Positions 42,218-61,229 of a stretch of DNA of 64,000 bases are shown here, piece by piece (the stretch's first letter is position 1; each line of letters opens with the position of its first letter). The position numbers and the translations under genes are program-made. Location of the stretch: positions 194,664-258,663 of the forward strand of contig CALVCV010000001.1 of NCBI GenBank assembly GCA_944326155.1, read 5' to 3'. The notes under the pieces are model-generated. The model saw nothing but the letters and a program-made list of their open reading frames with translations. It searched no databases and had not been told where the DNA came from. This DNA comes from an uncultured Bacilli bacterium. GTDB lineage: Bacteria; Bacillota_I; Bacilli_A; ML615J-28; CAG-313.

Positions 42218-45200
42218 TTATCTTGCAAAAACGCCATTATTCCAAATTCTACTTGCAGGATATGTTCCATCCCATTGTTCCCAAGTAGTTGTACCAGGAA
42301 TAACACTATGCAATGTAATTGATCTTGTTTCGCCATTTAACTCAACTGTTAATACATATGACACGGTTGTAGTTTCTTCAGGTGCATTAATAACGCGTCC
42401 AGTATTATCAACAATATCAGGATTATTAGATAAGATAGAAATATTCGCTTCTGAATAATTCTTTTGAATCTCATATTGTAATTCTACCATTTCCATAAAC
42501 GTATCCCAATATGAACCAGCAATCATAGTTTGTGGACAATTTTTCCCACTCCAAGTATTATGCATCTTAACTCTTGTTGTGTCTAAATCATTTCTTAACA
42601 AGATATCAGCTACAAGTTGTGCTGTTCTTTGGAACGTATCATAAATATCTCCAGATAAATTAGAACACATTTCAATACCTATTGAATTGTTATTACCACC
42701 ACGTGAGCCAATTTGGTTATAACTAAACCATAATGGACCACCAATATAGTAATATCCATCAATAACATCCCAAACAGGTCCTAAAATTGTGAAATTTTCT
42801 GCAGTAGGAGCAGCACCATTAATTAAAGGAGCCTCAACTGTTGTTGTAACACCATTTACAGTTACATAATATTTAGAACCATTTTGAGCGATACCAAATG
42901 TAGGTGCTACTTTTTCAGTTGCAACAGCATTTGTTTTAACCCATTCAAATGTAGATGATGTGCCATCACCAGCATGGTATGCAATATATTTTTCAGGAAC
43001 AACGCCATATATTGCATCATTACCTACTGTGTAATGAATTGATGTTTCGCCACTAGACATACCAGAGGCAATTGAAACTACTGTACCAGTAAGAGTTGCT
43101 GTATCATGAACAGTAACAAATTCAATTGTATCTTGAGGTCTACGTTCTTTATGGTTATTTGGATTACTTTCTGTAGTTGCATAATATGTTTCATCAACTA
43201 CAAATTCATCAAATAAATACTTATTAACACTTCCATATGTAGGAACATAAACTCTTTCAGTACCATCATTATATAATGAGATATTACCAGTTTCTACTAC
43301 CGCGAAATTGCTATTTACAAGTAAAGCAAGTAATTTATCAATAGCAGTATCACCACTTATTGCACCAACCTTAATGCAAACTGTTATGTTAATATCAGTA
43401 CCCTCGATACTTACTTTTACAGTAGCTTCACCATTAGCAACAGCAGTTACAAGTCCTGTATCAGAAACAGTTAAAATATCAGTATCACTAGATTCATATT
43501 TAATTGTAGAACCTTCCATATCTTTTCCATGTGCAGTAGCAATAATTTGAAGTGTATCATCGATATTAATTGTACCATTATATTGTTCTTCAAATGTTAC
43601 ATCAATTGTGTTAAGTGAATATACAGTAATATCATGACTATATGATACTTTATTCAAGTAATCATAAATTGTGATTGTTGCTGTACCTTCATTAACTGCT
43701 GTAACTAAGCCAGTACTTGATACTGTAAGAATATCGGTATTATTTGAAGAATAGAATAAATCTTTAAAATAAGCATCTGCAGGTTCAACACTTGCTACAA
43801 TTTGGAAAGTTTGACCTTTAGTTAATTCATCACAAATCGCATCAACTTTTATACCTGTAACAGGATTTAATTCTTTCCATTTTGCAGTAAGTTTTAAATC
43901 ACCACTAATAGTTTCTAAACTTTCATATAAAATATCATTTTCATCGTACCAACCTAAGAATTCATATCCTAAGTTTCCAGGAACAATAAGAGGTGTACTA
44001 TATCTTGAAGGAACAACTAATGTATCACCAGCAGGTACTTCATTGAAAAAGTACACTGTTGCTGGATTATCAGCTGATATATCTTCAATTGGAATGTCAA
44101 AAGCAACCATTTGTCCTACAGCTATTTTACTAATAGCGCTCGAAACACTACCATAACTACCGTATGAACTTGAAATTGTAATTACATATTCAGCACCTTC
44201 TGCCCAACTAGATGGACCAGAATTAAGTACAGAAAGTACTTCATAAATACCAGTTTCTATATTCTTTGCAATATAGATACGATCAGAGAATGTTGCTAAT
44301 GGATCATATTGATTTGTACCAATAAATATGTCACTAGTATATCTTCCTCCCCAGAAAGTACCATTATTATAATTGTAATTATTAACTGACAATTGTGTAG
44401 TAGCACTAGTACCATTTGCAACTAATAATTCTTCTGAATATCCACCATTAAAATCATAAGTTACATCATATATTTCACCTTCAAGTACTTCCCATTCAGC
44501 TACTAATATAATATTACCTTTAGATGTAGCAGGAATTTCTGCAACATAATCACCATTTAATGCCCAACCTAAGAATACAAAATTCAATCTTGTTGGTGTA
44601 GGTAATGCAATTGGTTCTGTATTGTAACTATTATAAGCTGTTGGATAAGTACCTTTTAAAGTACCACCATTTAATTCATAAGTAATCGTATAGAATTCAA
44701 GAGGTGTAGCTTCTTCAGTAGTTGGTGCAGTACTTAATGTAGTACCATAAGTCTTAAGGTGTTTAAATAATGCTGCATGAACACTTAAATCAGTTATTAC
44801 TTGTCCATCATTATCTTCATAATAGTTAGCACCAAATTCTGCTAAATGTGGATTAGTTGTTTCAGTATCAGAACCACTATAACTACCAAAGTAATGAGTA
44901 GCAGGAAGACCTAAAAATTGATTATTTTCAACTTTACAACTCCAAATAGAAGCTGTAGCACCATTATTACGTAAGTATAGATAATTGTAGCAATCGTCAA
45001 ATACATTATCAGTAATTTCCCATGCTGTCTTTTGTTCTTGATATACATGAGCTGCGATAGCACCATTGTATGGAGCTGCACTAGGATCAGAATTACCAAG
45101 TTGCTTAAATGTATTATTTGTTACATAAACAGTTGTACTTGTTCCTGCAGGACCAGATAGTGCATATAAGAAAATTGCATTATAGCCATTATCAGCAACA

Positions 45201-48200
45201 GTTTGTTCAAAATGATTGTTTGTGAATGAAATCAAGCCTTGATTATATCCACCCTCTGCTCTAATTGCGTCACGATCAAAATCAACAAATGTATTTCCTT
45301 CAACTGAAATATTAACAATTCTATTTACTAAAATATTAACATCACTAACATTTGTAAATTTATTATTTGCAAAATAGAAATCATTTGTAGAACCACCATT
45401 AGGTAAATTAAAATCAATAAATCCTTTCATTTGATAACGATTAATTACCCAAGGAGTTGTAGATTCAGTTGTATCATAAACTAAATTATTAATAAATGCA
45501 AAATTATAATAATTAGCACTTTCATTAGCCACAATTCTAGCATCACCAGTAAATGATAATCCATCAATTGTTAAATTAGTTGCTTCATTTGGAAGAGTAA
45601 TAACACCTGTTAAAACTGCTTCCTCTTCTCTTAAATCAGAATTAGCATCAACACCAGCGTTAGGTCCAGCAATTGTAATATTAGCTAATGAAATTGTAAC
45701 ATCTTCATCATATGTACCAACTAATAAAATAATCTTAGTGCCATCTTCAGCATCTGCTAAAGCTGCTGCTAATGTTGGATAATAATAATCTTCTCCTACA
45801 CCTACATATAATGCATCTTCACGCCATCTTGCTGTGAGAGTTACATCTGCACTTGTACCAGCTACAATTGCTTCAACTTTTTGATCATCTAGATACCAAC
45901 CAACAAATATTAAATCACCATTTGTAGGAACTGGAAGTCTATCTAAACCTAATGCATTATCATACATAGTTGGAGCATCTGATGGTAAATTTCCACCATT
46001 CAATACATATTTAATTGCATATGTTTCAGCTTCATCATCAATATATGCTGGAACATCTTCTTCATTTTCATAGTATGTTTCCCAACCATCTGTACCTATA
46101 AATTTTCCTTCAACAGGAGTAACATCATAATAGTTATTAGAACCATCAACTGTAAATGAGTTGTCATTCTTAATATAATATGTAGCAAGGCAGTTTAATA
46201 ATTTATTATAGTTAATATGAACATCGAAGTTATCAGCAATAGCATTAGAATTAGCATTCATTCTAACTAACATATATGAATCATTAACTGTATTATATTG
46301 GAATTCAAGAACTACTTTATCATCTTCACCACCATTATAAGTAGCAAGTGTGATAGCAGCATGGCTTCCTGGAGTTTGACCGCAATCAACAAATGTATTA
46401 TTCTTGATTTCATATGTACCACCAGCATAAGATAACAACCAAATTACGTATTGAGAGTATTTTTCAAAATAGTTATTAACAATCTTAACATCACCTTTTA
46501 CACCAAATGCTGCTTTGTTATCAATCTTAATACCATCATTGTAATTTGTTCCACTACCAACGAATGAACAATCTTTGATAGTTAAGTTAACGATTTGCAT
46601 ACCATATAAAATCATTGGTCTACCAGTTGAACCTTCATACTTAATATTTGATAATTCTAAATTTTCAAATAAGGCATTTGTATTACCAGTTTCTGGTACA
46701 AAATAAATTGGAGCAGTAGCACTGTCAGTAGCAGTTGCGTTAACTGTTGATGCATAACTGTAAATATTTGTTAATTTTGTATTGCTAACACCAGTAGGTG
46801 AACCACAAATACGTCCTTTTTCAGTTAATGCAATACCATCAATTACTACATTGTTTGCAGCAATAACAACATCGCTTGTAAAAATTGTTTCTTCTAATCT
46901 ACTTTGTTCAACAGGATTAATTCCCCAATTAGCACCTTTAATAGTTACTTCTTTAGAAATAGTAAATCCTTGATATGTTCCTGCAACAATTAAAATTTCA
47001 TCACCATCGTTTGCAGCTTCCAATGCAGCTTCAATTGTAGCATAAGCTTCAGGATCATTAGAATCAACAACTAATTCTTTTGGTTCAGCGCCAACTTCCT
47101 TCCATTCAGCAACAAGTGTAATATCACCTCTTTGATCGGGACCAATTTCAGTAACAACTTCACCATCTAATAACCAACCTACAAATTCAAATCCTTCTTT
47201 AGTTGGAACTGGAAGTGTAGTTGTTTGGTTAATTGCATATTCAGTAGGTAAATTATCGCATTCACCACCATCTAATTCAAAAGTAATTGCATATGTAGCT
47301 TGCTCCCATTTTGCATAATATTTACCTGCGCCTACAACAGTAGTTACAGCTTCACCTGCAAAAGTTTCATCAAGATACCAGCCAGCAAATACATAACCAT
47401 CTTTTGTTGGAGTTGGTAATATTTCACCTACTGCCATTTCTTGAGTAGTTAAACCTTCGGCATTTACAAACTCAACTTCTACTTTTTCAATTTCCCAACC
47501 AGCATATAATCTAACATTGCCAACTGTATCAGCACTAATTTCAGTTATAACTTGTGTACATTCAGGATCTAAGAACCAACCCTTAAATACATAACCATTC
47601 TTTGTAGCTGTAGCAGTTAATGTTAAAACTGTACCTGCAACATATTCAACTGGAGCATCAACTGAAAGTGTACCACCATCTAATTCATAACTAATAGCAT
47701 ATTTTACATCTTCATCAATATTTAAGTACTTAGCATATAAAGTTAAGTCACCCATTGTACCAGTAGGTACTTCAAACCATACATCACCAGTAAATTCAGC
47801 ATTTTGATACCAACCTACAAATTTCTTACCTTCAGCTGGAACTGGAGTTGGAAGTACAAATGGTAATGTTTCTAATGTATAAGTAGAAGTAACAGGCTTT
47901 TCTTCATAAACAGCTTCTGGTGCAAAGTCTAAAACTTTATTTACAACTGCTTCATCAGCAAAGTTTGCAGTCTCCCAATATTGATTACCAGCACGATATT
48001 GCATTTTTTGAACAAAGCCTTTAAATGCATAATAGAATGCATAATTATCATCAGCAACCTCAACATACGTTGGATCTTTATACTTAGTTAAAATTCTATT
48101 ATATTCACCAACAGTATTGACATCTAACAAGTATTCTAAGAACCAAGCATATTTTTCATACATCTTGACACCATTAACAGTTGATAAATAGAATGTACCA

Positions 48201-51200
48201 AAGTTAAGATCAGCTGCAGAAGGCCATGCTGAAGTACCTAATTCACTAGGTTCAGTATATGTTACACCGTCAAATGCTGAATAATCTTTTAATAGATCTT
48301 CAACAATTTGTTCAACAGTATCATAACCGCTTACTCTAACAGTTTCAACAGGAAGTTCACCATCTCCTACTTCATAAGTAATGGTATAAGTAACTGCTTC
48401 CCAACAAGCATATACAATCTTATCGCCTTTATCGCTAGCAGTAAATTCACTAACAGCTTGTGTACATTCAGGATCTAAGAACCAACCAACAAAAGTATAG
48501 CCAGGTTTTGTTGCGCCCATAAGAACTACACCAGTTTCTTCAACATATGAAGTAGGTGCACCTTCCTCTAATGTACCACCATCTAATTCATAATTAATAT
48601 TATAAGTATCATAATTAATTACTGAATCTGACCATCTAGCATATAATTTTATATTACCAATATTTTCAATAGTCAATTGCTCAATCTTGCCATTTTTAAG
48701 ATCAGGATTTGTATACCAACCAACAAATGTAGCCCCTTCTTTATTAGGTGTTGCAATTTCTAGAGGTAATTCTAAAACAGTATAACTATATTTTGCTTCA
48801 ATACCTACTTGAATATCTTTAGTAGGACATGCAGCCCATAAAGCATCACCATCAACATCTGAAAAATTCATTGATAATGGTGAAATTTTAGTTAAAAGTG
48901 TTTGTTGCAATAATGATGCAAAATTACTTCTTGCATACTTATTGAAATTAGCAGCACCAGCATTTAAAGTTAAATAAGCTTTGCCAGCATAATCAACTTC
49001 TTGTGCTTTATCATTAATGAAATCTAGTAACCAATTCCATTTAGCTGCCATTTCTTCATTTTTAAAGAATCCATATAAACCATATTGATTTGATTTACCA
49101 TAGAATGATTCTGCTGTAACACCAGTTAAGCCAGTGAAACTTGCATAATCATTTACAAATGCAGCAACTAAATCATCAAATGTGTCATATAATGGAGCAA
49201 CACTTGCAGTTAAAAATTGACCGCCATTAGTTTCATATTCAATTGTATAAGTTTCTAATTCCCAAGATGCATATAATGTAACTACTGTATCATCGGCTAA
49301 TCCACTAGGAATACTAGTTACAGCTTTTGTACATTCTACATCTTCAAACCAACCTTTAAATAAATAACCTACTTTAGTTGGAGTTGGAAGAGTAGTTAAT
49401 CCATCTTTTGCAATAAATGTTAATGGATCACTTGCTGTAAGAACACCACCATCTAATTGATAATCTATTTCTAATTCTGCTTCTGGATTATACCATTTTG
49501 CTACAAGAACTAAATTACCAGTGGTACCTTGTGAAATTTTATTTACTTGTGTTCCGTCTAAGAACCATCCTATAAATTCACAACCAGCCTTAACTGGAAT
49601 TACTAATAATACTTCATCATTTACTGTATAAGTATCTTGAGGTTCAGCACCATTAGATAAATAATCCCAGAAACCATTTGCTAGTGCATCATCAGTATAG
49701 TCTTGGCTTGCAGGCCAACTTGAACGGAAATCTTCAAATAGGAATGCACCTAATGAATATCTCCAATATGATTCATTACCAGTTTCTAAATATTCTTTAT
49801 TTGCATCAGTAGCAGTTGCAAGAATGTAATCTTTTAACCATGCCCATTTAGCAGCATAATCTTCACTACTAAAGATACCATAAATTGCTGTAAATACATC
49901 GGCAAAACCAATTCCATCAGTAGTGCCTTTAACCATACAATTTGGTTTAGAAGTCTTACCATAGAATGCCATTGCATCATTTAAGAAATCATCAACCATT
50001 TCCTCACGACTGATATATGGATAAATATCAAATAATCCATCATTTAAATCATAAGTAATCGTATATTCAACTATTGCCCATTCAGCTACAAAAGTAAGAT
50101 CTCCAGTTGTGCCTTTAGTAATTGTTTCAACTAATTCACCATCTAACATCCAACCAACAAATTCATAACCAGTCTTATATAGAACAGAAGGTAAAACAAC
50201 TTCATCCTCCACTGTATAAGTAGTAGGAATATTAGGTTCTGGTAAATCAACTGTATATAACCAGAAATCATTTCCACCAACTTCAGGTGAATAATCACAT
50301 CCATATGCCGCATTTCCACCTTTTTCACCAGGTGCACAGGCATTTAAAAAATTATGAATTTCACCTCGTGCTTCAGCTTGTCCATCTGCTGCACTTAACA
50401 CTGCTTTGCCATTAGCTAAACGAGTATCATTAATGAAGTCTAATAACCAACCCCATTTTGCGCCATATTCAGTACTTACTAAGAAATTATAGCCAGCGCT
50501 TGAATTATCAGCCATCCAACTTCTTGCGAAGAAATCTGATCCATCAGCAGCAACAGTTTTACCACTATGTGCATTAAAATCTACAACAAAATCAGCAACC
50601 ATTGCAGCACGATCTTTATTGTAAGGCCATACAACACCTGTTAAATCTTGCCAAGCTCCACCTACTGTATCAAATGTAATATTATAAGTGATAACTTCCC
50701 ATTCAGCAACAAGTGTAACAGCACCTGTTGTACCACTAACAATCTCTTCAACCTTAGTACCATCTAATGTCCAACCTAGGAACTTATAGCCAAGTTTTGT
50801 AGGTTCAGCTAATTTTAATGGTAATTTGTTGATATCATATTGAGCAGGATTTTCATCTGCATTTTGACCACCATTAAGCTCATAAGTAATATCAAAAATT
50901 GATACTTCCCATTTAGCATATAATGTGATATCACCAGTTGAATTAGCAGCAATTTCTTCAATTGGATTACCTGTGAATTCAGGATTATCATACCAACCTA
51001 AGAAATTATATCCAAATTTGGTTGCGGCTTTAATTGCAATTGGAAGATTTAAAACATTATATCCAACAGGATTAGATGGATCATTTGTTCCACCATTAAG
51101 CTCATATTGAATCGCAAAATCAGCTTCTAATACTTCAATAACGAAAGTATAATCACGATATTGTGTTTCATCTAATTCATCAGTCGCACGTACAATAATA

Positions 51201-51724
51201 ACTGCAGTACCTTTTGCTACTCCTGTAATTACTCCATCTTCATCTACTGTTGCAATTTCAGGATTAGCAGACGTAAAACTCATTAAAGCATTTGCATATT
51301 CTGGAACAAACTTATATGTTAAAGTTTGTGTAGTACCTTTTAACATTGTAAGTTGTAATGGTTCAAATTCGACTTCTGGAAGCGAATTTGCCACTACTCT
51401 TACTGTTGCAATATCATATGCAACAGGATGTTCAGAACATACAACTTTAATTATCGTCTCCCCTGGTTGTAAACCTGTTAGTTTACCATCAGAGTAGGAT
51501 GCAATTTGATTGTCATATGATGTGTATTCAATAGTTACAACACCAACGTTTGACCCTTTGTTAACTATTGGGGAAACATCAATGGTTTGACCAACATTTA
51601 CTTCATATACGTCATTGTCAAATGTTAATCTTACATAATCATTATTGTTTGTACATGAGGCAATACCAAATAGTAGTCCCACAACAGTTAATAATAAGAA
51701 AAATCTTTTTCTAATGTTTAACAT
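42218..51724 (-). CDS. giant (3168 aa) cell-surface lipoprotein with a C-terminal split Amidase_2 (N-acetylmuramoyl-L-alanine amidase) module
   Basis: Domain order from N to C: signal peptide + lipobox LFGIASC, 2 Big_2 domains, ~14 Listeria-Bacteroides (Flg_new) repeats of which 4 carry inserted modules, 2 right-handed beta-helix modules, 2 Big_2 domains, then the amidase module. Amidase motifs VTVHDTA, SIHYTVGNDAIYGVV, AYHAG, NSIGIEM, SGKNCPQTM. Confidence 0.85.
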   Translation of the reverse strand: MLNIRKRFFLLLTVVGLLFGIASCTNNNDYVRLTFDNDVYEVNVGQTIDVSPIVNKGSNVGVVTIEYTSYDNQIASYSDGKLTGLQPGETIIKVVCSEHPVAYDIATVRVVANSLPEVEFEPLQLTMLKGTTQTLTYKFVPEYANALMSFTSANPEIATVDEDGVITGVAKGTAVIIVRATDELDETQYRDYTFVIEVLEADFAIQYELNGGTNDPSNPVGYNVLNLPIAIKAATKFGYNFLGWYDNPEFTGNPIEEIAANSTGDITLYAKWEVSIFDITYELNGGQNADENPAQYDINKLPLKLAEPTKLGYKFLGWTLDGTKVEEIVSGTTGAVTLVAEWEVITYNITFDTVGGAWQDLTGVVWPYNKDRAAMVADFVVDFNAHSGKTVAADGSDFFARSWMADNSSAGYNFLVSTEYGAKWGWLLDFINDTRLANGKAVLSAADGQAEARGEIHNFLNACAPGEKGGNAAYGCDYSPEVGGNDFWLYTVDLPEPNIPTTYTVEDEVVLPSVLYKTGYEFVGWMLDGELVETITKGTTGDLTFVAEWAIVEYTITYDLNDGLFDIYPYISREEMVDDFLNDAMAFYGKTSKPNCMVKGTTDGIGFADVFTAIYGIFSSEDYAAKWAWLKDYILATATDANKEYLETGNESYWRYSLGAFLFEDFRSSWPASQDYTDDALANGFWDYLSNGAEPQDTYTVNDEVLLVIPVKAGCEFIGWFLDGTQVNKISQGTTGNLVLVAKWYNPEAELEIDYQLDGGVLTASDPLTFIAKDGLTTLPTPTKVGYLFKGWFEDVECTKAVTSIPSGLADDTVVTLYASWELETYTIEYETNGGQFLTASVAPLYDTFDDLVAAFVNDYASFTGLTGVTAESFYGKSNQYGLYGFFKNEEMAAKWNWLLDFINDKAQEVDYAGKAYLTLNAGAANFNKYARSNFASLLQQTLLTKISPLSMNFSDVDGDALWAACPTKDIQVGIEAKYSYTVLELPLEIATPNKEGATFVGWYTNPDLKNGKIEQLTIENIGNIKLYARWSDSVINYDTYNINYELDGGTLEEGAPTSYVEETGVVLMGATKPGYTFVGWFLDPECTQAVSEFTASDKGDKIVYACWEAVTYTITYEVGDGELPVETVRVSGYDTVEQIVEDLLKDYSAFDGVTYTEPSELGTSAWPSAADLNFGTFYLSTVNGVKMYEKYAWFLEYLLDVNTVGEYNRILTKYKDPTYVEVADDNYAFYYAFKGFVQKMQYRAGNQYWETANFADEAVVNKVLDFAPEAVYEEKPVTSTYTLETLPFVLPTPVPAEGKKFVGWYQNAEFTGDVWFEVPTGTMGDLTLYAKYLNIDEDVKYAISYELDGGTLSVDAPVEYVAGTVLTLTATATKNGYVFKGWFLDPECTQVITEISADTVGNVRLYAGWEIEKVEVEFVNAEGLTTQEMAVGEILPTPTKDGYVFAGWYLDETFAGEAVTTVVGAGKYYAKWEQATYAITFELDGGECDNLPTEYAINQTTTLPVPTKEGFEFVGWLLDGEVVTEIGPDQRGDITLVAEWKEVGAEPKELVVDSNDPEAYATIEAALEAANDGDEILIVAGTYQGFTISKEVTIKGANWGINPVEQSRLEETIFTSDVVIAANNVVIDGIALTEKGRICGSPTGVSNTKLTNIYSYASTVNATATDSATAPIYFVPETGNTNALFENLELSNIKYEGSTGRPMILYGMQIVNLTIKDCSFVGSGTNYNDGIKIDNKAAFGVKGDVKIVNNYFEKYSQYVIWLLSYAGGTYEIKNNTFVDCGQTPGSHAAITLATYNGGEDDKVVLEFQYNTVNDSYMLVRMNANSNAIADNFDVHINYNKLLNCLATYYIKNDNSFTVDGSNNYYDVTPVEGKFIGTDGWETYYENEEDVPAYIDDEAETYAIKYVLNGGNLPSDAPTMYDNALGLDRLPVPTNGDLIFVGWYLDDQKVEAIVAGTSADVTLTARWREDALYVGVGEDYYYPTLAAALADAEDGTKIILLVGTYDEDVTISLANITIAGPNAGVDANSDLREEEAVLTGVITLPNEATNLTIDGLSFTGDARIVANESANYYNFAFINNLVYDTTESTTPWVINRYQMKGFIDFNLPNGGSTNDFYFANNKFTNVSDVNILVNRIVNISVEGNTFVDFDRDAIRAEGGYNQGLISFTNNHFEQTVADNGYNAIFLYALSGPAGTSTTVYVTNNTFKQLGNSDPSAAPYNGAIAAHVYQEQKTAWEITDNVFDDCYNYLYLRNNGATASIWSCKVENNQFLGLPATHYFGSYSGSDTETTNPHLAEFGANYYEDNDGQVITDLSVHAALFKHLKTYGTTLSTAPTTEEATPLEFYTITYELNGGTLKGTYPTAYNSYNTEPIALPTPTRLNFVFLGWALNGDYVAEIPATSKGNIILVAEWEVLEGEIYDVTYDFNGGYSEELLVANGTSATTQLSVNNYNYNNGTFWGGRYTSDIFIGTNQYDPLATFSDRIYIAKNIETGIYEVLSVLNSGPSSWAEGAEYVITISSSYGSYGSVSSAISKIAVGQMVAFDIPIEDISADNPATVYFFNEVPAGDTLVVPSRYSTPLIVPGNLGYEFLGWYDENDILYESLETISGDLKLTAKWKELNPVTGIKVDAICDELTKGQTFQIVASVEPADAYFKDLFYSSNNTDILTVSSTGLVTAVNEGTATITIYDYLNKVSYSHDITVYSLNTIDVTFEEQYNGTINIDDTLQIIATAHGKDMEGSTIKYESSDTDILTVSDTGLVTAVANGEATVKVSIEGTDINITVCIKVGAISGDTAIDKLLALLVNSNFAVVETGNISLYNDGTERVYVPTYGSVNKYLFDEFVVDETYYATTESNPNNHKERRPQDTIEFVTVHDTATLTGTVVSIASGMSSGETSIHYTVGNDAIYGVVPEKYIAYHAGDGTSSTFEWVKTNAVATEKVAPTFGIAQNGSKYYVTVNGVTTTVEAPLINGAAPTAENFTILGPVWDVIDGYYYIGGPLWFSYNQIGSRGGNNNSIGIEMCSNLSGDIYDTFQRTAQLVADILLRNDLDTTRVKMHNTWSGKNCPQTMIAGSYWDTFMEMVELQYEIQKNYSEANISILSNNPDIVDNTGRVINAPEETTTVSYVLTVELNGETRSITLHSVIPGTTTWEQWDGTYPASRIWNNGVFAR

Positions 51725-51948: not shown

Positions 51949-54231
51949 TTAACCAAATAAGAAATGGCAATTACCTGGAATAATAGTTGATAAGGTTATA
52001 GTTTTAGATACGCCATCTTTTGTGACAGTTACATTGTAACTAACCACTTTATCTTTTAAATCTTGTTTTATAACACGGCCATTATTTTTTACAAATTCTG
52101 CGTCTAAAGATTCAAAAGTAATTTCATAGTCACCAAAGTCTTTTAAAATGCGATATTCAAAAGAAACAAGAGTTAAGAAATTATCCCATAAGCCATTATC
52201 TCGCATTGTTTGTGGACAATTTTTTCCACTAAAATAATGATGAGGTTTTACATCGTCAAGAGTTAAATTATTATCAATTAATAAATGGGCTACTAATTTA
52301 GCAGTTTTTTGCCATGTTAAGTATAAATCAGATCCTTGATTCACCATTGTTTCGATGCCAATACTATTTACATTACCACCTGTATTTGCAACACGTTTGT
52401 AAGTTGAACTCCACCATGTATCACCAATATAATATTTACCATTTTGAACAACAACACGGATGCCAGCATCATTAATCTCTGATGTTGTTGGAATTTCTTC
52501 GTTGTCTTTAAGTGGAGCTTTTACTAATGATTTTTCGCCATCTATTTCAAAATAACCATCTTCAGAAATTGTAACTTCCATTTTTGCGTTTGGTTTTGCA
52601 ACTAAACCAGATTCATTCAAATGATATTCTCTTGAACCATCTCCAGCATGATATGCTCTTTCATTATCAGGAATTTGATGATAAATACCTGTATCACCCG
52701 CTGAATAGTGCCAACTTGTTCCACCACCACCTACTTGTACATATCTTGCATGAGTAAGTGCATCAGCAGTATTAGCACTAGAGGCTGTATCATGTACGCA
52801 AATATAATATTTTTCATGTGTATCGCCAGGTCTATTTTCATCATTTAATGGTGTCATATAATCTTCATTTACAACATGATCTGCAAATAAGTAATTAGAT
52901 ACACTGCCACGTAGACGTAATCCATACACAAATTGATATCCTGTTACTGTAATTTGTTTAGTAATAACTTCATCAGCATTTGCTTCAACTAGAAGTTGTA
53001 ATAATTCATCTAGGCCGTCTAAATCTTCAACTATTGTTATTCCTAATGTAATATTAACATCAGGAAAATCTTCCAAACTTGCCATAATAGTTGTATAGCC
53101 TGTCGAAACCGGTGTAATTATACCATTATTATCAATTGTTAAAATTTCATCATTCATTGTAGTAAATTGAATTTTTGATAAATTTTGTTCTTCACTAAAA
53201 TATTTTTTAACAACACTTATGGTTAAACTATCTTCTAAATCAATGACTGTTGTATCAGCATGTAATTCCATCCTTGTGTATCCAAACATTGGAGTTAATA
53301 TTAAATCTCCAGTTGTTCCTACAGGAATACTTTTCCAAAGTATACTTGTATCCCAAGATGCAACTGCCGTATTTTTATATTCATTAGCTATATCAGGTGT
53401 TGCCCATCCTAAAAATAAATATCCATCTTTAGTTGGAACTGGTAATTCAAGAGGTAATTGTGATTGTTTGTAACTCGTAATATCAGTTTCTGGCAAGATA
53501 ACATTTGCTTTAGAAGCATATTCAATATCAAATGTTTCTTCGCTTATTGTTAAAACTATTTGATCATATTCAGAATTATCAATTGTCTTAAAAGTAATTG
53601 TTACTTGACCTTCTTTTAATGCTTCTATTACACAAATATTTTCTGTTTGACTAACAACTTTTACCATTTTTTCAACATTAAATTCAAGTTGATATAACTT
53701 TCCACTAGTAAAATTTACTTCTATATTTTGTTGTTCACCAACCATCATTTCACTATTAGCAACAATTGCATCAATCTGCATAGATGGCAAAGGATTACCT
53801 TCTGTTTCACCACATCTTGAACATGTCTTTGGTGCTAGATAAGTTGCTTCAACCCAATCGTGACCTAACGCTTCAAGCGTTTCAATTATAATTTCATCAC
53901 AACGATTACAAGTAAACAATTTAGTACCTTCTTCTGTACAAGTTGGTTTATTTGTAATTACGCCTTCATTCCAATCATGACCTAACGCTTCACCATTAGT
54001 TGCTCCACATCTTATACATGTTTTTGATTTATCACATGTTGCATCAACCCAAATATGGCCCAAAGCCTCTCCTTCTGTAGCATTACAAACTGTACAAGTT
54101 TTAGGGGTGGTACAAGATGCTTCTTGCCAATGGTGTCCATTTTTTTCACATGTAGATTTTTTCTTACACGAAGCAAAACTGCATAACAGCACTATCATAA
54201 ATACGAATAAAATAGCTCTTCTAATTTTCAT
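51949..54231 (-). CDS. 760-aa lipoprotein paralog with a C-terminal split Amidase_2 module and an N-terminal Cys-rich GHxW repeat array
   Basis: Lipobox FASC; 4 GHxW repeats of pattern C..KTC..C....GEALGH.W; one Big_2, one Flg_new repeat, a second Big_2; C-terminal ~355 aa clearly paralogous to the giant gene C-terminus (ICVHDTA, SWHYS, AYHAG, NSIGIE, SGKNCPQTM). Confidence 0.85.
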   Translation of the reverse strand: MKIRRAILFVFMIVLLCSFASCKKKSTCEKNGHHWQEASCTTPKTCTVCNATEGEALGHIWVDATCDKSKTCIRCGATNGEALGHDWNEGVITNKPTCTEEGTKLFTCNRCDEIIIETLEALGHDWVEATYLAPKTCSRCGETEGNPLPSMQIDAIVANSEMMVGEQQNIEVNFTSGKLYQLEFNVEKMVKVVSQTENICVIEALKEGQVTITFKTIDNSEYDQIVLTISEETFDIEYASKANVILPETDITSYKQSQLPLELPVPTKDGYLFLGWATPDIANEYKNTAVASWDTSILWKSIPVGTTGDLILTPMFGYTRMELHADTTVIDLEDSLTISVVKKYFSEEQNLSKIQFTTMNDEILTIDNNGIITPVSTGYTTIMASLEDFPDVNITLGITIVEDLDGLDELLQLLVEANADEVITKQITVTGYQFVYGLRLRGSVSNYLFADHVVNEDYMTPLNDENRPGDTHEKYYICVHDTASSANTADALTHARYVQVGGGGTSWHYSAGDTGIYHQIPDNERAYHAGDGSREYHLNESGLVAKPNAKMEVTISEDGYFEIDGEKSLVKAPLKDNEEIPTTSEINDAGIRVVVQNGKYYIGDTWWSSTYKRVANTGGNVNSIGIETMVNQGSDLYLTWQKTAKLVAHLLIDNNLTLDDVKPHHYFSGKNCPQTMRDNGLWDNFLTLVSFEYRILKDFGDYEITFESLDAEFVKNNGRVIKQDLKDKVVSYNVTVTKDGVSKTITLSTIIPGNCHFLFG

Positions 54232-59259: not shown

Positions 59260-59880
59260 TCATTTTTTTAAATAATAATTATTTTTTATTTCATAATCTA
59301 AAGTCGTAAATTCATTATGACCAGGGTAAATAAAATAATTTTGTTTTAAATTTTTAATATTCTTTAAAGACTCTATTTGTGCGATGATATTACCAGTTGC
59401 AAGATCTGTTCTTCCAACTGAACCTTTAAACAAAGTATCACCTGAAAAAAGCAAATTATCAATTATATAACAAACTGAATCATCCGTATGTCCTGGTGTA
59501 AATAAAATTTGAACATAAAAATTAGCAAATTGTAATTTTTCATTATCTTTTAGAAAAACAAATTTATTATCTTCAATATAAGGAAGTTTATCACATCCAA
59601 AATATTTTGCATAACTTGTATCCAAATCAAAAATTTTATCTTTAGCTTTTTTATGTAAATAACATTTTACATCATAGGTTTTGAGGACATCTTCTAACTC
59701 TTTAAAGTGATCATAATGACCATGTGTAAGAAAAACTGCACATAATATCTTATTTTCTAAAAATTGTTTTAATGTTTTAACATTATTTGCAGGATCAATA
59801 ACAATTGCATATTGATCTTGAGTTATCAAATAAGTATTACAATTTTCTTGACTATCGCAAAATACTTCAACGGATAACAT
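59260..59880 (-). CDS. MBL-fold metallo-hydrolase
   Basis: THGHYDH metal-binding motif, 206 aa. Confidence 0.8.
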   Translation of the reverse strand: MLSVEVFCDSQENCNTYLITQDQYAIVIDPANNVKTLKQFLENKILCAVFLTHGHYDHFKELEDVLKTYDVKCYLHKKAKDKIFDLDTSYAKYFGCDKLPYIEDNKFVFLKDNEKLQFANFYVQILFTPGHTDDSVCYIIDNLLFSGDTLFKGSVGRTDLATGNIIAQIESLKNIKNLKQNYFIYPGHNEFTTLDYEIKNNYYLKK

Positions 59881-61229
59881 TATTTTTTAAGTTCAGGAAG
59901 ACTCGCAGCAGCAATTGATTGGCCTACACGACGAGTCCATTCATCTGGCATCATAATTGTTATATCTTTATATTCAGGGAATTCGTCTTTTAATACTTCA
60001 TTGGCTTTAGCAATAATGATATCGCCACCTTCACCACTTGTTACACGACCAAGTAATAGTAAATATTTAATATCATAGAATTCAGCATAGTATGCGATAC
60101 TATAACCTAAATAAATACCAATATTTTCATAAATTTCTCTTGCACGTGGATCATTTTCTTTCATTAAGCCTTGAACAACTTTTAATTTTTCAGCAGGAGA
60201 TGCATTTTCGTCTAATTTTATTCCTGCAAAACCAGCTAATTTAATAACACTATCTTGACTAAAGTATTTAACGCCACAACCATAATCACCGCTCCATTCA
60301 TCAATCATTGCGTCTTTATTATAGTCTACTGGTACAAAAGCAAGTTCACTTAACCAACCATTGAGATTACCATCTTTATTAACATAACCTACAGCCTCAC
60401 TTGTACCCATAGCAATACCTAAAACACGGCCATCCTTTAGACTTAATGCTCCTGCTAATGCTGTAACGTCACCATCATTAGCAACGGTTAATGGTATGTC
60501 ACCAATTTCTTTAGCTGCACGAATATACATATCTCTAACTTTCTTTTCAAATAAATCTTGAGGTACTTTAAGAAATAAAGATGCTACACGAACTTCATTA
60601 TCAATATATATACCAGCGCTTGAAACACCAATTGCGTCTACTCTTGGCATTTTAGCAGCCGCACGTTTAAAACTATCTAAAATTCCTGCATAATGGTATT
60701 CAGGATCTTCATTAATTTTAGGAAACCAAACAACTTCTTCAGAATGAATAACTTCACCATTTACAACAGCACTTACTTTTCTATCCGAGCCGCCTGCATC
60801 AAAACCTATTCGGCATCCTTCAAGATGGCCACCTGCTGGAAGTGATGCTTCAATAGTAGTTGGCACTTCTGCTAATAAGCAAGCAATTACTTCAAATGGT
60901 TTGTCATAAACTCTTGACATAAAATCAACATCGAATCTTCTAGTTCCTTCTAAAGAGAAAACTTCTTGCATTTTTTTTGTAATAAAATCATTACCACCTA
61001 AGTAAATTTTAAATCCACCTACAACCCAAAGGATACTTTTAATTACTCTTTCAACCATTTCATAGTTTTCAACGTTATCCCCACGGAATACCTTCATATC
61101 GTAACGATAGCGATAACCATTTTGTCTTTCAACACAAATGGCAAAAGGTTCTGTTGCTTGTGCATTAAATTTTCTTAGTTCAAGAATCATTGGTTTAAAA
61201 GATTTTTCAAGACTTGGTACATATTTCAT
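59880..61229 (-). CDS. ASKHA-superfamily sugar-kinase-like protein (ROK/BadF-like core) with ~130-aa N-terminal extension
   Basis: GFDAGGSDRKV phosphate-1-like motif, VANDGDVTALAGA and GIAMGTSEAVGY ROK-like blocks; N-terminal domain unassigned. Confidence 0.45.
   Translation of the reverse strand: MKYVPSLEKSFKPMILELRKFNAQATEPFAICVERQNGYRYRYDMKVFRGDNVENYEMVERVIKSILWVVGGFKIYLGGNDFITKKMQEVFSLEGTRRFDVDFMSRVYDKPFEVIACLLAEVPTTIEASLPAGGHLEGCRIGFDAGGSDRKVSAVVNGEVIHSEEVVWFPKINEDPEYHYAGILDSFKRAAAKMPRVDAIGVSSAGIYIDNEVRVASLFLKVPQDLFEKKVRDMYIRAAKEIGDIPLTVANDGDVTALAGALSLKDGRVLGIAMGTSEAVGYVNKDGNLNGWLSELAFVPVDYNKDAMIDEWSGDYGCGVKYFSQDSVIKLAGFAGIKLDENASPAEKLKVVQGLMKENDPRAREIYENIGIYLGYSIAYYAEFYDIKYLLLLGRVTSGEGGDIIIAKANEVLKDEFPEYKDITIMMPDEWTRRVGQSIAAASLPELKK

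Follow-up and report, generated by a model that had tools for sequence, protein, structure and literature searches.

Predicted helical modules nested within Flg_new repeats of a giant surface lipoprotein from an uncultured Bacilli bacterium

The DNA analyzed here (the window) is a stretch of 64,000 nucleotides with a low G+C content (about 0.22-0.33), taken from contig CALVCV010000001.1 of an uncultured Bacilli bacterium (assembly GCA_944326155.1, positions 194,664 to 258,663 of the forward strand). Its minus strand carries a 9.5 kb open reading frame (ORF), open and uninterrupted throughout, that encodes a 3168 amino acid surface lipoprotein (Table 1). The N-terminus of this giant protein, as read from the sequence, is a signal peptide that ends in a lipobox (..LLFGIAS↓C). 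Pfam recognizes in it Big_2/Big-like domains, 13 stretches of Flg_new (E 7e-127) and, at the C-terminus, Amidase_2, and its sole NCBIfam match is to the TIGR02543 repeat (E 3e-81). Flg_new repeats are common in the surface proteins of gut bacteria and archaea, where they are usually treated as an inert stalk. Four such repeats of the giant protein are each interrupted by a long segment, and it is these four inserts (I1 through I4) and their host units (R1 through R4) that are considered here.

All four units are interrupted at the same place, after strand 1 and the YxLNGG turn, where 133-158 amino acids intervene before the repeat resumes at strand 2. The opening strand and turn are normal in all of them (ITYNITFDTVGG, VEYTITYDLNDG, ETYTIEYETNGG and VTYTITYEVGDG), and after each insert come TYTV.., the G(Y)xFxGW motif and a final LYAKW-type strand. 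A Flg_new hidden Markov model (HMM) was built from six canonical repeats of the giant protein itself; canonical repeats match it over positions 1-70, but the post-insert parts match only from about position 14-19 to 69. When the insert is deleted in silico the score rises in all four units, and the match is restored to positions 1-69 in R3 and 2-69 in R2; the joined flanks of R1 and R4 score higher as well, yet their alignment starts only at HMM position 14-18. The post-insert part also matches the InlB B-repeat in profile comparison (E 6e-5). The initial annotation of this DNA had placed four insert-bearing Flg_new repeats at residues 360-1290 and quoted a conserved motif for each, and both the four split units and the four motifs are located there (Table 1). 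Its wording that each repeat is split in half needs correction, as only strand 1 and the NGG turn (~12 amino acids) precede the insert and ~50 amino acids follow it; nor do the four lie strictly in tandem, since canonical repeats lie between R2 and R3 and between R3 and R4. No further copies of the module were found within the window. At the DNA level the copies share only short, diverged similarity at the conserved motifs and no long repeats, so they are the product of neither recent duplication nor faulty assembly.

Table 1. Positions in the window of the giant lipoprotein gene, its amidase domain, the four split Flg_new units and the predicted helical modules nested in them
Feature	Position	Strand	Basis
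Giant lipoprotein gene	42218..51724	-	ORF, Pfam; lipobox ..GIAS↓C read from sequence
Amidase_2 (N-acetylmuramoyl-L-alanine amidase-type) domain, residues 2865-3065	42530..43132	-	Pfam
Split unit R1, residues 345-550	50075..50692	-	Repeat mapping, HMM
Nested helical module I1, residues 357-500, 144 aa, motif AKWGWLLDFI at 422	50225..50656	-	
Split unit R2, residues 552-745 (unit modelled)	49490..50071	-	Repeat mapping, AF2 model, HMM
Nested helical module I2, residues 564-696, 133 aa, motif at 625	49637..50035	-	
Split unit R3, residues 824-1032	48629..49255	-	Repeat mapping, HMM
Nested helical module I3, residues 837-977, 141 aa, motif AAKWNWLLDFI at 894	48794..49216	-	
Split unit R4, residues 1111-1334	47723..48394	-	Repeat mapping, HMM
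Nested helical module I4, residues 1123-1279, 157 aa, divergent subtype, motif EKYAWFLEYLL at 1190	47888..48358	-	

The inserts themselves correspond to no named domain. The best Pfam-A match of the four excised segments has an E value of 0.065, NCBIfam returns nothing, and the Flg_new profile is not matched even at E<=10. At E<=1, no two of 65 diverse family members (see below) match the same Pfam family. The insert profile matches no PDB sequence, and a profile of the whole split unit matches, by way of its Flg_new part, the InlB B-repeat and a Treponema sialidase and nothing else. The first reading of the sequence had recognized no described domain here, and these scans bear it out; they likewise give no profile match for the possibility, raised at that time, that the segments are ordinary long Flg_new variants or belong to a known Pfam domain, and the predicted structure is all-helical. 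In public (NCBI) records, proteins that carry the module go by the name 'InlB B-repeat-containing protein', by 'uncharacterized repeat protein (TIGR02543 family)' or by that of the enzyme fused to it. Pfam, NCBIfam and full-text searches of the literature on Flg_new, List_Bact_rpt and B-repeat yielded no account of an insert like this or of a nested Flg_new variant of this kind; a preprint on 'giant genes' touches on the repeat only briefly.

Structure prediction gives the same picture for the insert alone and for the insert within its host. An AlphaFold2 model of the R2 unit, made with a 53-sequence family alignment, has a mean predicted local distance difference test (pLDDT) score of 94.3 and a predicted template modelling (pTM) score of 0.76, and in it strand 1 is followed by eight helices and then by the remaining strands (2-5) of the repeat, so that the strands on either side of the insert have the order expected of the repeat. 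I2 modelled by itself with a 65-sequence alignment (pLDDT 92.8, pTM 0.87) gives the same eight helices, and the module is therefore predicted to be self-contained. Neither the insert model nor the whole-unit model has a Foldseek match in the PDB at E<=0.001 (best for the insert E 4.3, TM<=0.18), and there was none at that threshold in BFVD (TM<=0.28 across the PDB and BFVD). The whole unit reaches 2y5p, 9qr4 and 10qf, which represent the InlB B-repeat and a sialidase Flg_new domain, at E 0.9-3.1, weak values that reflect the fact that just ~50 residues align. The modelling and fold search proposed with the initial annotation thus return a compact domain that is predicted to form with or without its host and that resembles no solved structure at the threshold used.

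I1, I2 and I3 are recognizably homologous in pairwise BLASTP comparison (E 1e-6 to 9e-5 at a database size of 1e6). I4 is weak in such comparisons; however, almost all of it can be aligned to an HMM built solely from the I2-type modules of other proteins, and the I4-type and I2-type profiles match one another in hhalign (probability 99.0%, E 6e-18). When 1.84 billion cluster representatives were searched by HMMER with an insert-only profile, the module was found in 321 proteins at E<=1e-3 and in 128 at E<=1e-10. These proteins are mostly long and carry up to eight copies each. Word-index protein searches first returned eight fragments, and with the 65-sequence profile gave only two matches, both already known. 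Genome matches, found with a 3-sequence insert alignment, lie in an 'uncultured Mollicutes bacterium', 'Staphylococcus sp. CAG:324', a rumen Firmicutes metagenome-assembled genome (MAG), an Erysipelotrichaceae MAG that carries a 2736 amino acid ortholog, and three Bacteroidota MAGs. The arrangement had at first been described as unusual, but it is not peculiar to the giant protein, since the same nested module is present in all these representatives and in both Bacilli and Bacteroidota. Many members start with lipoprotein signals, and the Bacteroidota members end in type IX secretion system (T9SS) sorting domains.

In 158 family proteins, a match to the C-terminal part of the Flg_new HMM immediately follows 219 of 278 near-full-length modules. 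A strict motif for the C-terminal side is present in 195 of the 244 cases that could be judged (about 80%) and in none of 244 shuffled flanks, and a strict YxLNGG-type motif for the N-terminal side in 120 of the 244, against 6 shuffled; the other judgeable cases also look like diverged Flg_new by eye. A looser regular expression, which scored 238 of 244 as nested, was dropped because it matched 180 of 244 shuffled flanks too. The insertion point is always the turn between strands 1 and 2 in the family proteins examined, and no clear case of a module outside a Flg_new unit was found among them. The inserts can thus be regarded with high confidence as a discrete, unnamed, all-alpha domain family that occurs obligatorily as an insert nested within the first hairpin of a Flg_new repeat. 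Each insert in the giant protein is probably one copy of this unannotated domain, which is predicted to fold independently and to comprise eight helices in about 130-155 amino acids. It is similarly probable that the Flg_new repeat with its nested helical domain is an old and conserved component from which multidomain proteins, surface-anchored or secreted, are built in Bacteroidota and in gut and rumen Bacilli.

A different segment of ~150 amino acids (residues ~2425-2575; 44000-44452, minus strand) breaks another Flg_new unit of the giant protein (YDFNGG ... GYEFLGW), and the canonical HMM resumes after it at position 27 (residue 2577). The segment has no Pfam match and no PDB sequence match, and related ones occur in 11 other family proteins; in the ortholog from L007 a similar segment appears to be placed after the GW motif instead. 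This second interruption suggests that Flg_new may host more than one kind of nested domain.

The giant gene sits in an ordinary chromosomal context, with hrcA-grpE-dnaK-dnaJ and then a gene for a 760 amino acid Amidase_2 protein upstream of it, and rsmE-, mtaB- and DEAD-helicase-like genes after it; tRNA synthetase genes, metK and similar genes lie elsewhere in the window. A scaffold titled 'Staphylococcus sp. CAG:324' (L002) has the same order (dnaK, dnaJ, 774 amino acids, 3005 amino acids), in which the 774 amino acid protein is the counterpart of the 760 amino acid one, so that the pair is syntenic downstream of dnaK-dnaJ. The two DnaK proteins are 95% identical, from which it follows that the window derives from a near relative of this uncultured gut bacterium. 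The first 1479 residues of the two giant proteins are 73% identical, and thus the giant protein evolves much faster than housekeeping genes. All four nested modules are nevertheless retained in the L002 ortholog. In another related giant protein (P0009) the positional orthologs of I1, I2 and I3 are 70-77% identical to them (I1 77%), whereas paralogous inserts within one protein share about 30% identity, and modules of the I4 type are found again, at 26-31% identity, in members that are unrelated. The subtypes must therefore be old and separately maintained. In a single pairwise comparison with the L002 ortholog, the ratio of nonsynonymous to synonymous substitution rates (dN/dS) is 0.21 for the four inserts together (range 0.18-0.30), 0.35 for the canonical Flg_new repeats, 0.29 for the strands that flank the inserts in the split units and 0.13 for the N-terminal Big-like region, which argues for a constraint on the inserts no weaker than that on their host repeats. 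Conservation across the family (in I2 numbering) is highest at D20 (98%), K63 (97%), W64 (95%), W66 (94%) and F98 (88%), followed by Y7, Y70 and R92 (83% each) and D112 (82%); in the I2 module of the giant protein, the most conserved positions fall on D583, K626, W627, W629, Y633, R655, F661 and D675. The modules are acidic, with a pI of ~4.1-4.3 (family median 4.7).

The company that the module keeps offers some indication of its role. Pfam finds Flg_new in 51 of 57 full-length members, and among the same 57 the catalytic families are GDSL-type esterase (four proteins), GH18, GHL10, GDPD and Amidase_2 (two each). The amidase-type C-terminal region of the giant protein is common to 30 of 157 family proteins, and Amidase_2 is the commonest catalytic partner of the module across the family. 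All the recognizable catalytic partners have extracellular glycans or polymers of the cell envelope as their substrates; GHL10 provides the catalytic domain of Cwp19, a peptidoglycan lytic transglycosylase (PMC6016235). Members from Bacteroidota and small members from Bacilli have a single module fused to an enzyme or to beta-rich domains of their own. In L008 (5584-7578) a 194 amino acid ORF without a signal peptide consists of one split unit with its module, and a GH18/EndoS-like gene begins 30 nucleotides downstream of it; the arrangement may represent a module-GH18 fusion such as P0049 that has been split or frameshifted. The three Bacteroidota MAGs (L003, 522-14432; L004; L005) share a conserved row of genes like those of a polysaccharide utilization locus, which encodes a SusD-like protein, a 295 amino acid protein, a PKD protein, a GHL10 protein, the module protein and one or two phosphodiester glycosidases of the NAGPA type; both the GHL10 protein and the glycosidases end in T9SS tails. 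In L003 a DDE transposase is inserted after the module gene. By fusion or by neighbourhood, the module is thus recurrently associated with glycan- or wall-active domains in extracytoplasmic proteins, in part of the family.

These partners, the surface or secreted location of the proteins, and the presence of multiple diversified modules under more constraint than the stalk together suggest that the likeliest role of the module is to recognize a target polymer and so to position the attached enzymes there, although this is put forward tentatively and at somewhat less than even odds. In this sense the ligand-binding module suggested in the initial annotation is plausible. The Flg_new repeats would form the stalk of a lipid-anchored protein, from which the helical domains would project sideways as recognition heads. 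Such heads might bind a glycan or a cell-envelope polymer, be it the wall of another bacterium or a host or dietary glycan; four subtypes could then give multivalent or multispecific attachment, and attachment would bring the enzyme parts, here the C-terminal Amidase_2 domain, onto their substrate. As an overall account, a family of nested helical domains that act as putative recognition heads on a Flg_new stalk is probably the best explanation of the observations.

Several points weigh against a recognition role. The association with enzymes is partial, as most of the 57 scanned members have no recognizable catalytic domain, and the difference in constraint comes from one pairwise ortholog comparison only. 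Most characterized carbohydrate-binding modules are beta-sandwiches rather than helical bundles. The acidity of the modules does not favour charge-based binding to anionic wall polymers. In addition, no single ligand is indicated, since the partners variously suggest peptidoglycan, N-glycans and phosphodiester-linked glycans.

The same lack of catalytic domains in many family members would suit a purely architectural ('periscope') role, in which the helical domains have no ligand and serve to stiffen, space or kink the stalk of Flg_new repeats. Flg_new/B-repeat domains are indeed regarded as stalk or spacer (bioRxiv 10.1101/2024.12.31.630911), and the top conserved residues of the module are largely aromatic or hydrophobic and could form its core. 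A spacer, however, would hardly need four old and distinct subtypes each kept in position in orthologs, nor would it be expected to be more constrained than the stalk repeats (dN/dS 0.21 versus 0.35) or to hold the near-invariant charged residues D20, K63, R92 and D112. An architectural role alone is accordingly considered unlikely, though it is the strongest of the rivals. It is a good deal less probable that the modules are protein docking sites that work in the manner of cohesin and dockerin and recruit, for example, the neighbouring Amidase_2 protein to a giant scaffold. Conservation of the 760/774 amino acid gene directly upstream of the giant gene, both in the window and in L002, would fit docking, and the presence of different subtypes on a single scaffold is reminiscent of scaffoldins; but no partner motif was identified, and the fusions of single modules to their own enzyme or beta-rich domains in Bacteroidota and small Bacilli proteins fit substrate targeting better. 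Conservation of D20, K63, R92 and D112 across all subtypes could also mark the catalytic site of a small enzyme that acts on a surface polymer, the module being always found in extracytoplasmic proteins alongside hydrolases. This is very improbable, as the module has no sequence or fold similarity to any enzyme and as many as eight copies per protein in divergent subtypes are typical of binding modules, not of catalysts. Finally, there is next to no likelihood that the segments are expanded Flg_new loops (I2 alone folds in prediction as an all-helical domain at pLDDT 92.8 and has a family of 321 representatives), a known domain (there are no Pfam or NCBIfam matches), an intein (Pfam scans give no Hint/intein match and an all-alpha fold is predicted) or an artefact of assembly or frameshift (the reading frame is open throughout, the syntenic ortholog has the same arrangement, and DNA similarity is only short).

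Comparison with known systems shows what is ordinary and what is new in the giant protein. Its host units R1 through R4 belong to the Flg_new or Listeria-Bacteroides repeat, which is the InlB B-repeat (PF09479, TIGR02543; PDB 2Y5P), a beta-grasp stalk domain (bioRxiv 10.1101/2024.12.31.630911). A canonical Flg_new repeat, however, is ~65-70 amino acids long with a short turn between strands 1 and 2, whereas in R1 through R4 this turn holds an insert, predicted to form eight helices, that is unlike Flg_new. In its N-terminal anchor, its arrays of Big_2 and Flg_new domains and the placement of functional domains distal to the anchor, the giant protein resembles the stalk ('periscope') or fibrillar surface proteins; it differs from periscope proteins in that its candidate heads are not at the tip but lateral, inside four stalk repeats, and are of distinct paralogous subtypes. 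The position of the module beside GHL10, Amidase_2, GDPD, GH18 and GDSL domains is that of CWB2 in Clostridioides difficile Cwp19, which combines GHL10 with CWB2 (PMC6016235). Unlike CWB2, the module is a putative binder only; it is acidic and has no sequence or fold similarity to CWB2 or to any named wall-binding module.

The Flg_new repeat can thus host a nested, conserved domain that current databases leave unnamed, and hundreds of large proteins labelled only 'InlB B-repeat-containing' carry this unrecognized part. Should the module prove to serve in recognition, it would add a helical family to the glycan- and cell wall-targeting modules and help explain the attachment targets of giant lipoproteins in uncultured low-GC gut Bacilli; should it be only structural, the gain would be a new family of the Pfam type, and domain nesting would have a well-defined example. 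A stronger version of the recognition role, which must be viewed as doubtful, would have the modules constitute a new all-alpha family for glycan or envelope recognition with a fold absent from solved structures. The giant protein would then be a 'lectin array', with four specificity subtypes inside its stalk repeats that guide a peptidoglycan amidase and other enzymes onto other microbes or host glycans in the gut.

Some other features of the region deserve mention. The Amidase_2 match in the giant protein is a 131-position profile spread over about 200 residues, so this domain seems itself to hold an insertion. The neighbouring 760 amino acid protein (51949-54231, minus strand, directly upstream of the giant gene) has the same stretched Amidase_2 pattern (residues 476-674) together with one weak Flg_new match. 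A 449 amino acid ORF near the hrcA operon (59880-61229, minus strand) has no Pfam match at E<=1e-5. Within the giant protein, two long regions between Flg_new blocks (residues ~1555-2330; ~44740-47060, minus strand) also have no Pfam match, and their N/G/T-rich repeats, judged by eye, look like right-handed beta-helix (pectate-lyase-like) domains.

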